Assembly (NCBI GenBank): GCA_951406725.2
Contig: OX597833.1
Location: 50,840,001 to 50,904,000, forward strand
DNA: 64,000 bases
Source: Octopus vulgaris
Lineage: Eukaryota
Direction: 5' to 3'
Under the pieces are notes generated by a model, which saw nothing but the letters and a program-made list of their open reading frames with translations, did no database searches and was not told where the DNA came from. Shown piece by piece: positions 15,950 through 63,168 of this stretch; within the stretch, counting starts at the first letter, position 1; each line of letters starts with the position of its first letter. A program made the position numbers and the translations under genes.

Positions 15950-16367
15950 ATTTCTTATTTCTTTATTGCCCACAAGCGACTAAACACAGAGGGAACAAAC
16001 AAGGACAGACAAAGGGATTAAGTCTACTACAGTGACCCCAGTGCGTAACTGGTACTTAATTTATCGACCCCGAAAGGATGAAAGGCAAAGTCGACCTCGG
16101 AGGAATTTGAACTCAGAACATAACAGCAGACGAAATACCTGTTTCTTTACTACCCACAAGGGGCTAAAAACAGAGAGGACAAACAAGGACAGACAAACGG
16201 ATTCAGTTGATTATATCAACTCAAGTATGTAACTGGTTCTCGATTTATCGATTCCGAAAGGATGAAAGGTAAAATCAACCTCGGAGGAATTTGAACGCAG
16301 AACGTAACGGCAGACAAAATACCGCTAAACATTTCGCGCGGCGTGCTAACGATACTGCCAGCTCACC
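15950..16367 (-). mobile_element. SINE family A dimer (two units, one head)
   Basis: Units end at GAAATACC (16139) and AAATACC (16323); head GCTAAACATTTCGC..GCCAGCTCACCG occurs once. Confidence 0.9.
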
Positions 16368-28599: not shown

Positions 28600-29567
28600 T
28601 CTACCATAGGTACAAGGCCTGAAATTTGGGGGAGAGCTTAGTCGATTACATCGACCCCAGTAACCAACTGGTTCCTAATTTATAGACCCGAAAAACATGG
28701 ATGTAAGGTAAAGTTGATCTCAGCAGAATTGGAACTCCCAACGTTAAGGCGGAACATATACCTATTTCTTATTTCTTTATGGCCCACAAGGTGCTAAACA
28801 CAGAGGAGACAAACAAGGACAGACAAACGGATTAAGTCGATTAGATCGACCCCAGTGCATAACTGGTACTTAATTTATCGACCCCGAAAGGATGAAAGGC
28901 ACAGTCGACCCCGGCGAAATTTGAACTCACAACGTAACGGTAGACGAAATACCTATTCTTTACTACCCACAAGGGCTAAACACAGAGAGGACAAACAAGG
29001 ACAGACAAACGGATTAAGTCGATTAGATCGACCCCAGTGCATAACTGGTACTTAATTTATCGACCCCGAAAGGATGAAAGGCACAGTCGACCCCGGCGAA
29101 ATTTGAACTCACAACGTAACGGTAGACGAAATACCTATTTCTTTACTACCCACAAGGGGCTAAACACAGAGAGGACAAACAAGGGCAGACAAACGGATTA
29201 AGTCGATTATATCGACCCCAGTGCGTAACTGGTACTTATTTAATCGACCCCGAAAGGATGAAAGGCAAAGTCGACCTCGGCGGAATTTGAACTCACAACG
29301 TAACGACAGACGAAATACGGCAGACGAAATACCTATTTCTTTATTACCCACAAGGGGCTAAACACAGAGAGGACAAACAAGGACAGACATAGGTATTAAG
29401 TCGATTACATCGACTCCAGTGCGTAACTGCTACTTAATTTATCCACCCCGAAAGGATGAAAGGCAAAGTCGACCTCGGCGGAATTTGAACTCACAACGTA
29501 ACGGCAGACGAAATACCGCTAAGCTTTTCGTCCGGCGTCCTAACGTTTCTGCCAGCTTGCCTCCTTT
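28600..29567 (-). mobile_element. SINE family A array: one old copy (28600-28762), four young units, one head
   Basis: Junctions ATACC|TATT at 28762, 28953, 29135 and 29333; head begins after 29517. Confidence 0.92.
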
Positions 29568-33992: not shown

Positions 33993-34869
33993 TACATCAC
34001 GCATACACACACATAAACGTACACAAACATATATATATATAAGCATACAAATATATATGTGCATATATGTATGTACGTACTTATGCATGTATACGAAACT
34101 GATTTTTCTGAGGAATTACGGAGAATCTTTAGGCTATATCCATCAAGAAGCAATGGGCCTAAATAATATATCACATTTTTTGTAATTCTCGCTCCTTTCC
34201 ATTCCGCCATCGGTGTTAACATCAATGATACGAATATAATAGCAGAATTAGTGGTTAATGAGCGTCAATGAATTTTGTCAGCAATGGTGTGTTCAGATTT
34301 ATGAGAAGCAATGTTAGCTAAAGTGAGAAATTTCTTCGTCTAATTCTTGATATTTTTGACGTGGTATCTCTTCCGAGCAAGTTATATTTTTGGCGTACTG
34401 CCCAGACTTTCTAGTATGTGTCTAGGCTATTTAAATGCCAAAATCTTTGCCAAAATTGGTCGTATACGTTTAATGACGCTGCATGATATTGGAGAAGTAT
34501 GCGGCCTTTATGCCTGGTCATTACACATCATTCTTTTATAAATTTTCCATTTTCTGTTTTTCTTTACCAAATGACTTTCAGCAGTCACATGCATGCATCC
34601 CCCAATATGCCGATATATATATACATACATTCAGTTCGAAGTTACATTTCCCCACTTTTACTCGCCGTTAATATATCAATCTGTTCTCTACTGATTTAAT
34701 AAAATCCGATTAGAGATTTTGTTGTAGATGGATGGAAGTAAATTCACTGCGGGTAATTACATTAGATTAAATACATCACTAGCTATTTCAGCATTTAGAA
34801 TTTTCATCAAAAATTAATTACATCGCAAATTAATACATCCTTAATAAAGACATTCATCATTCTAAATAC

Positions 34870-35470
34870 TTATTTCTTTATTACCCACAAGGGGCTAAAG
34901 ATAGAGGGTACAAACAAGGACAGACATAGGATTTAAGTCGATTACATAGACCCCAGTGCGTAACTGGTACTTAATTTATCCACCCCGAAAGGATGAAAGG
35001 CAAAGTCGACCTCGGCGGAATTTGAACTCACAACGTAACGGCAGACGAAATACCTGTTTCTTTATTACCCACAAGGGGCTAAACATACAGGGGACAAACA
35101 AGGACAGACATAGGTATTAAGTCGATTACATCGACCCCAGTGCGTAACTGGTACTTAATTTATCGACCCCGAAAGGATGAAAGGCAAAGTCGACCTCGGC
35201 GGAATTTGAACTCACAATGAAACGGCAGACGAAATACCTGCTTCTTTATTACCCACAAGGGGCTAAACATAGAGGGGACAAACAAGGACAGACATAGGTA
35301 TCAAGTCGGTTACATTGACCCCAGTGCGTAACTGGTACTTAATTTATCGACCCCGAAAGGATGAAAGGCAAAGTCGACCTCGGCGAAATTTGAACTCTCA
35401 ACGTAACGGCAGACGAAATACCGCTAGGCATTTCGCCCGGAGTGCTAGCGATTCTGCCAGCTCGCCGCCT
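34870..35470 (-). mobile_element. SINE family A trimer (3 x 184 bp, one head) with a 17-bp TSD
   Basis: Units end at 35054, 35238 and 35422; TSD TTCATCATTCTAAATAC at 34853-34869 and 35471-35487. Confidence 0.95.
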
Positions 35471-54187: not shown

Positions 54188-54229
<42 letters not shown>

Positions 54230-54278
54230 CTGTATGTATTGAGTACCTTACTTACTGTGGTTAACCCGAATCCCGGAC

Positions 54279-54323
<45 letters not shown>

Positions 54324-62206: not shown

Positions 62207-62399
62207 GCTTCCTCTCTTTTTCTTGTCTTACAATATCGTTTCACGATTTTCTCTCGAGCCGAGTCTCTTTTCTTACTATTTACTTTGTCCGACCATCTTA
62301 AAGTATCCTTCAGACTTGAATTTTATTCCAGCATTTCAACCAGTCAATCCCTTTCTCTTCACATACATCAAACATCATATATATATATATATATATATA

Positions 62400-62450
62400 A
62401 GCTTCCTGAAGATTTCTCTTGAATGAAACAGTACTAGTCCTGTAGAAGCT
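62400..62450 (+). ncRNA. Compact type I hammerhead-like motif at the start of a (TA)n-flanked insert (62400-62537)
   Basis: Stem I AGCTTC/GAAGCT (6 bp), CTGAAGA (62406-62412), stem II TTC-TCTT-GAA with a T.T closing pair, GAAA (62425-62428), stem III CAG/CTG with loop TACTAGTC, GTA triplet (62442-62444). Confidence 0.75.
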
Positions 62451-63168
62451 CCTTCTATATAATAAATTAATTTTACTCTGCTATGTATTGAGTACCTTAC
62501 TTACTGTGGTTAACCCCGAATCAACCCGGGAACTACATATATATATATATATATATCTTTCTTTCTTTCACCATTTCTACACCTCCCTCTTCTGTCTCCT
62601 ATCAATTTTTTTTATCTCCTTTCTTTTTCCCCTCCCAATCTATCATCACAAATCTCTCCTTCCTCTATTTTATCTTTACCACTATCTCCATCTCAATATA
62701 ACATTTTCTCCTTATTTTCTTCTCACCCATTTCGCCATTATCTCATACCTGTCTATCTGTCTCTACGACACTCGACTCGCATCTCCACCACACATCTACA
62801 AACGCAATACATATCTAACAACATAGGTATATGACAGTCACTCAGCAACCATCAGAAAATGCCACAAAACCCTTTAGGGAAAACTGATATATAAAATATA
62901 TTTTATTTACTTCGCGTATAAATGAGAAAGCAAAAATGCACCGCCATAAAACCTCCTACATGATAAGTCAGGGTATCAAGTCTCACGTTCAAAAGAAAAC
63001 TAAGTTAATCCAGGACGTGTTATCTATGGAATCAACGAAAGGTTTTTTCCTATTTCGGGTCCCCATTTTGTAGCATTCTTTGGTTATATCACACAAACAC
63101 ACATTGACGGCTATGCGTCTATATATATATATATATATATATATACACTGTACATCATCTCTAAACCT

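Follow-up and report, generated by a model that had tools for sequence, protein, structure and literature searches.

A 138-bp piece of DNA at 62400 to 62537 of the 64,000-nucleotide stretch of Octopus vulgaris DNA that we analyzed (here called the window) begins with a predicted hammerhead ribozyme and lies in a (TA)n repeat. What kind of element leaves such a piece, and what sets its ends? A sequence-only reading of the locus, whose 138-bp sequence we recovered as given, took it for a minimal unit placed there by target-primed insertion with variable 5' truncation. We assign a probability of about 0.72 to the reading that this stub was likely copied from an uncut, capped RNA, with copying starting at +138 and running back to the cap at +1, into (TA)n. 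In the numbering used throughout, +1 is window position 62400, +45 is A62444, +68 is 62467, and +138 is 62537. The features are as follows.

62377 to 62399: (AT)n target, left flank
62400, plus strand: +1, first base of stem I and putative capped transcription start of the parent (arm pile-up, parent TATA box, G at -1)
62400 to 62405 and 62445 to 62450, plus strand: stem I (descriptor scan)
62406 to 62412 and 62425 to 62428, plus strand: hammerhead core strands (descriptor scan)
62413 to 62424, plus strand: stem II, a U·U base plus 3 bp (descriptor scan)
62428 to 62431 and 62440 to 62443, plus strand: stem III, 4 bp with an 8-nt loop (descriptor scan)
62428 to 62443 (+29 to +44), plus strand: 16-nt near-palindrome of stem III and its loop, predicted to pair between two RNA copies (double hammerhead)
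62461 to 62472 (+62 to +73, mode +68), plus strand: the family's second copying start, not an end in the single-arm window copy
62468 to 62537, plus strand: 70-nt "tail" between the two copying starts, the main one being at about +138
62505 to 62537, plus strand: predicted hairpin closing the tail (fold prediction)
62537 to 62556: (AT)n target, right flank, where a target duplication is unreadable
54223 to 54285, plus strand: copy in (TA)n that has just the tail (about +70 to +140) and belongs to the commoner subfamily (similarity to the 3' half)

A descriptor scan of both strands of the 64-kb window returned one type I hammerhead, at 62400 to 62450 on the plus strand, with stem I directly after the repeat and (AT)n flanks, as the sequence-only reading had it. 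The match has three stems and the type I core CUGANGA / GAAA / UH, here CUGAAGA / GAAA with a GUA triplet, which puts the predicted cut after A62444, the very base named before. An Rfam search at gathering scores gave no match for this hammerhead, and the folding energy of the 51-mer was no better than that of shuffled sequences (z -0.17). Because the folding energy is unremarkable, the ribozyme status of the 51-mer rests on its core motif and its family context.

The G10.1-C11.1 pair of canonical hammerheads is absent from 62400 to 62450, and a U·U stands in its place at the base of stem II. We surveyed 78 related loci, 55 of which carried the motif in the same layout, an arrangement also seen in the Hydra set of PMC8557442 File S2. 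Among the 50 distinct motifs so obtained, U·U was the commonest state (21 of 50), and a hand count of the same file found it in 14 of 25 published Hydra families. Judged by these relatives, the U·U is normal for Hydra hammerheads and requires no repair, contrary to the earlier suggestion that the closing pair might need it. We also computed that +29 to +44 can pair with a second copy of itself at 14 of 16 bases (-15.2 kcal/mol). A dimeric, or double, hammerhead design has been described (PMC4209133), and published PLE hammerheads were inactive as monomers (PMC4209133) or without the PLE protein (PMC11167929). Given these precedents and a stem III near-palindrome suited to dimers, a monomer cleavage assay could well give a false negative.

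The 3' part of the window copy had been noticed again near 54228 to 54283, and a match of 88% over 68 columns (E 6e-16) at about 54223 to 54285 bears this out. The second stub differs from the commoner subfamily by 8 deleted bases and 1 mismatch over 71 columns, and the descriptor scan found no hammerhead in it. By its sequence, it is a decayed or mis-assembled sister copy without the ribozyme. We rejected a distinct family for it, since its exact end occurs nowhere else and its sequence can be aligned with that of the commoner subfamily. Elsewhere in the window, related tandem repeats of 184 to 198 bp (15958 to 16323, 28770 to 29517, and 34864 to 35422) have similar sequence in flanks elsewhere in the genome and are probably a common short interspersed repeat.

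The genome identifies the parent of the window copy. All 40 scored genome candidates for the 138-mer were 100% identical over all 138 bp, and a shared 32-mer occurred 1,291 times in the host assembly (2.8 Gb, microsatellite-rich) versus 0 times for the reversed control; the recurrence is thus no accident. Pairs of the 138-mer lie 5,192 bp apart and bracket an ORF, and loci L334 and L346 hold uninterrupted natural versions of 713 amino acids. Rather than a minimal unit, then, the 138 bp are almost certainly the end piece of a young 5.2-kb Hydra-type PLE that encodes RT and GIY-YIG in one ORF and inserts into (TA)n.

The protein assignment runs through homologues. The 713-amino-acid protein shares 41% identity with P0096 over 719 columns; P0096 has a GIY-YIG match, and the homologue P0086 has an RVT_1 match below the cut-off. 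The RT part drew 1,408 relatives among 7,995 scored candidates, and most of the best 120 are about 700 amino acids long. A Pfam search of the ORF itself gave no direct RT or GIY-YIG match and one weak VtrA_C match below the cut-off; a PDB profile search gave nothing relevant. All of the Hydra-clade motifs DKT, the CxCx5C linker, CxxC, and CxH are present in the translation, which has RWR where Hydra has RWK (RWK in two and RWR in four of six aligned homologues). By eye, we spotted no CCHH motif in it.

The element also has the EN+ PLE architecture of partial tandems (pseudo-LTRs), an inverted 5' copy, and an optional tail, together with both Hydra traits of a hammerhead and (TA)n insertion. 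Its likeness to the Hydra clade of Craig et al. 2021 (PMC8557442) thus extends from the single ORF of about 700 amino acids with RT, GIY-YIG, and the above motifs to the type I hammerhead close to the 3' end, the U·U at the foot of stem II, the (TA)n target, the partial tandems, the inverted 5' copy, and the tail. It differs from that clade in its tail (70 nt versus 30 to 40), its loop III (8 nt versus 1 to 3), its RWR, and its unit of 5.2 kb versus less than 3 kb, a size that is typical of Hydra and not strict. The ORF is of normal size, and the surplus lies in a 3' UTR of 2,869 bp, of which 2,036 bp are in short-period repeats and in which two complete copies agree at 99% of 2,823 aligned columns. 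This UTR (L031:4325-7193) is a 2.9-kb degenerate TA/TG microsatellite kept as a conserved part of the element; as such, it spreads microsatellite DNA and with it possible (TA)n targets for the element itself. Compared by eye, the hammerhead sequence is unlike that of Hydra-1_oBim (File S2), and the present element is therefore another family. The clade assignment rests on motifs, and by them the element is a new family within the known Hydra clade; the stub itself is ordinary.

Most assembled copies seem to have a broken ORF. Six C instead of the frame-keeping seven stood in 31 of 34 sampled sites that had been picked by a six-C query (L031:3655-3661), and the seventh C was present in short-read contigs of all four runs examined. 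The break likely stems from a homopolymer error made in assembly, which conceals intact ORFs. A programmed RT/endonuclease frameshift was rejected on account of that seventh C and the uninterrupted 713-amino-acid copies.

We then asked where copies of the family end, using all 92 copies with the exact young 3' 32-mer (52 short ones and 40 extending upstream of +1). At the 3' side, 89 of 92 enter (AT)n right after +136, and 3 continue into the next unit. This is the common 3' terminus that had been predicted, and target-primed insertion into (TA)n, also proposed from the sequence, we judge right. The proposal of a shared 3' end stands in that a common end exists but fails in that it is not single: the family has two ends, +138 and +68. 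At the 5' side, 36 copies start at +1 to +12, 9 at +13 to +40, none at +41 to +51, and 7 at +52 to +104 (p 3e-22), the other 40 being those that extend upstream. Genome-wide, 1,013 arms end exactly at +1 (by a pattern that excluded T at -1) and 1,930 run past it. Instead of the variable 5' truncation first supposed, there is a sharp +1 boundary, with 36 of the 52 short copies at +1 to +12; the 5' ends of long copies fit random truncation, as does the 54228 stub. Cleavage as the main source of 5' ends was rejected, since 0 of 52 short copies start at +41 to +51.

The parent carries TATAAAT at -29. We counted by hand the base at -1 in the first 100 listed of the 1,013 joints: 44 were perfect palindromic joins, and G stood at -1 in 46 of the 56 others. 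Of the 100, 79 are uninformative; in the 21 where the partner arm cannot supply the base, G was present in 15 (p 4e-4). An untemplated G is an accepted mark of a copied cap in L1 and SVA (PMC4859970). Because arms stop at +1, with a TATA box at -29 and frequently an additional G, we infer a cap at this position, and +1 is likely the capped transcription start of the parent RNA. The window copy itself has one arm, no partner arm, and no extra G at -1. In the relatives, a TATA box lies 31 to 37 nt before stem I in 11 of 50 motifs (11 of the 15 with any TATA; the distance range was set after looking). In six other relatives (L260, L279, L284, L295, L304, and L318), a run of pyrimidines with CAG stands in place of TATA, at stem I or immediately before it, much as if the hammerhead marked the end of an intron.

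Insertions of this family usually consist of two head-to-head arms that end at +138 and +68. A partner arm was present in 46 of 52 short copies, 45 of these 46 ending at +62 to +73 (mode +68), and none exceeded +1 by more than 2 chance bases, so that short went with short in 46 of 46. Long went with long: 32 of 37 long terminal copies had a partner, all 32 passing +1 (the remaining 5 have no partner in view), and 30 of 30 visible outer ends of long copies were at +66 to +72. Such agreement suggests that both arms were copied from one template. L323, however, pairs a +1 arm with a +46 arm, so a common RNA for the two is not obligatory. Either arm may be the longer one, and either may be complete; pure fold-back of one cDNA was rejected as the general rule for the inverted arm on the former ground. 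Head-to-head junctions were read in 2013 as self-priming on antisense RNA (PMC3846280). Contrary to that reading, the G found at the sense 5' end speaks for a template of sense polarity, and twin priming at two start sites is the probable origin of the arms.

Some insertions have unusual joints. At L236, L237, and L239, the cDNA seems to jump from +1 to the end of another RNA fragment (+923, +338, and +173), leaving a scar, and one +62-G-+1 joint was seen in a contig of run X15. At L031:7394-7626, L160, and L219, the family has inserted a second time, in (TA)n that directly adjoins an earlier insertion.

Next, we looked for signs of cleavage at the base following the predicted cut. A search pattern for starts at +46 gave 34 raw rows, of which we set aside 23 by hand, 12 as point changes or small indels in continuous copies and 11 as ambiguous stem I joints. 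The other 11 arms begin exactly at +46, at 8 loci, and at 3 loci both arms do so. Control positions gave 1 true start of 4 rows (+43) and 2 of 20 (+49), and the contrast with +46 has p ~0.009 by loci. The peak is about 1% of that at +1; the signal is small but base-exact. At L238, moreover, a 125-bp unit (+45/46 to +170) is joined twice at the cut site. The shapes of these sister copies suggest that the predicted hammerhead does cut in the cell. At L321 and L322, both arms begin at the cut site with foreign DNA between them, a short near-palindrome in the former and about 200 bp of host sequence in the latter. For the Anolis element Poseidon, cleavage was unnecessary for insertion in vitro, and none of the RNA-seq reads had either end at the cut site (PMC11167929).

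The unit-to-unit junction of the element has 91 matches, including those in three arrays (L217, L218, and L219) with units of 277, 333, and 271 bp. Each array has a different deletion, found at one locus, that joins the ORF start (+228 to +246) to the promoter (-38 or further up). Junction matches number 8+6, 19+2, and 22+5 in the two head-to-head arms; in every array, each arm holds several units, and the arm ends lie at +67/68 and +138. A single-copy source of the three deletion joints was absent among the 91 junction matches. The TATA box and 228 to 246 nt beyond +1 are kept in all three arrays, which thus delineate the minimal cis region by natural deletion. Tandem units with a hammerhead in each, the hallmark of retrozymes, were found in L217 to L219 only; the window copy is single.

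We then considered the ORF-complete copies that reach the upstream hammerhead, a count that leaves out the shorter-cut L340, L348, and L350. Of these, 18 of 19 pass +1 without a scar, and the older L349 starts at +9. A linear capped mRNA should stop at +1, and scarless passage therefore points to a circular template. Against circles, a variant unit recurs in L219 at a distance of ten units, as a multimeric template or later duplication would produce, multi-unit masters exist (L147 and L164), and the arrays may owe something to later expansion or to mis-assembly. On these sequences, a circular RNA template is somewhat favored as the means by which complete elements are rebuilt.

The mechanism that we propose would run as follows. 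A TATA promoter in the pseudo-LTR would start the RNA at the first base of stem I. The RT-endonuclease would nick both strands of (TA)n and prime two cDNAs, one at +138 and one at +68 of the sense RNA and probably both on a single molecule, and microhomology would let their free ends join head to head. Where an uncut RNA is primed close to its 5' end, the products would be promoter-less dead-end stubs like the window copy, for which only one arm would have been made or kept. Hammerhead cutting, likely as a dimer and with help from the protein, would release unit-length RNA to be ligated into a circle, and copying round the circle would restore the upstream promoter as partial tandems and make retrozyme-like arrays in one event. 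The hammerhead at the cap may thus be a switch: uncut RNA would give stubs, RNA cut at both hammerheads would give a circle copied by two primers that regenerates the promoter-bearing pseudo-LTR, and deleted circles would give a retrozyme array in a single insertion. We hold the switch as a tentative reading, at a little under even odds.

The strongest competitor of the preferred mechanism keeps the same element and cap but dispenses with circles: complete and tandem copies would arise when transcription reads through tandem masters, the small arrays would grow by unequal crossing-over once inserted, and the hammerhead would be dispensable. The multi-unit masters and the ten-unit spacing in L219 fit such a history, as do the dispensability of cleavage in vitro (PMC11167929) and the local amplification invoked for retrozyme arrays (Li et al. 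2026). Every internal pseudo-LTR has a promoter, however, so many complete copies should stop at +1, and 18 of 19 do not. Nor does it account readily for arrays whose two arms are both multi-unit with normal start-site ends, for deletion joints that have no single-copy source among the 91 junction matches, or for the L238 unit joined repeatedly at the cut site. We consider it doubtful, though it is the best of the alternatives.

Somewhat less likely is that the short copies derive not from the full mRNA's 5' end but from short transcripts, which would begin in the 3' pseudo-LTR of a truncated copy and, SINE-like, be mobilized in trans. The 1,930 arms that retain sequence upstream of +1 and the TATA box kept by most long copies speak for it, as does the (UA)n, a match to the target, with which these RNAs would end; the idea is compatible with the cap at +1. 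Against it, the jump products at L236, L237, and L239 show capped RNAs reaching the ORF (+923, +338, and +173), copying starts are internal and need no 3' end, the minimal RNA of the Anolis element included ORF sequence (PMC11167929), and all three mini-units retain ORF sequence to +228 to +246.

That the +1 boundary is a 3' splice site, or an RT stop caused by the hammerhead fold, instead of a cap seems quite improbable. The parent does have pyrimidines followed by TAG at -1 to +2, an intron of the D. virilis Penelope ends at helix I (PMC4209133), and the several relatives with a pyrimidine tract and CAG just before stem I look similar. But arms keep A+1 and G+2, the 100 listed joints share no common upstream exon, a fold would halt RT before the hairpin and not after it, and the TATA box at -29 and the extra G fit a cap. 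Hardly credible is a minimal element in its own right, or a random 5' truncation whose start falls on stem I by coincidence: random truncation fits the long copies and the 54228 stub, but ends pile up at +1, the parent has been found, and the 138-mer lacks a promoter.

The preferred reading, of a stub copied from uncut capped RNA, has parallels in known systems. Poseidon PAc of Anolis carolinensis (Frangieh et al. 2024, PMC11167929) likewise has two internal RT start sites bounding a tail, both DNA strands cut and extended, and uncut RNA as the dominant template. It belongs to another clade. In the octopus family there is one arm per start site, the putative-cap stop can be seen, and the cut site is where some genomic arms start, whereas the Anolis RNA-seq had no read ends there. 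The two-start-site tail is known from that one in vitro study. Animal non-LTR retrozymes (Cervera and de la Pena 2020, PMC7229834; Li, Clavereau and Pollet 2026, 10.64898/2026.07.22.740005) are tandem type I hammerhead units of 170 to 400 nt, which the arrays of 271 to 333 bp fit, and PLEs have been proposed as both their source and their means of movement (PMC7229834; Li et al. 2026). The window copy differs from them as a lone sub-unit piece and is not a retrozyme; the arrays differ in being near-identical deletion products of an intact parent, at single loci, with the parent's two-arm pattern. In L1 twin priming, the two arms copy adjacent parts of the RNA, whereas here both copy the same part from two fixed sites. 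What the family has in common with L1 is a head-to-head inversion from two priming events and an untemplated G at full-length 5' ends (PMC4859970).

The family type, the target, the tail, and the hammerhead are already published (PMC8557442, PMC11167929, and PMC4209133). No report of a PLE cap-site pile-up, cut-site starts, or two-armed arrays was found in a literature search confined largely to open-access papers. Schostak et al. 2008 (PMC2377424) could see no evident way of regenerating the pseudo-LTR, and Craig et al. 2021 (PMC8557442) called hammerhead function in EN+ PLEs unclear. If the switch reading is true, the octopus copies would provide direct evidence from a genome for in vivo cutting by a PLE hammerhead, and circles, with a template of sense polarity, would explain both the tandems and the inverted ends of PLEs. 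With thousands of near-identical arms and intact ORFs, this young family is a genomic record of the PLE cycle, and it makes base-exact predictions: a cap at +1, a cut at +45/46, starts at +68 and +138, and circles of 271, 277, 333, and ~5,200 nt. Its value lies in this record, against which possible workings of the hammerheads, tails, and tandems of PLEs can be tested.
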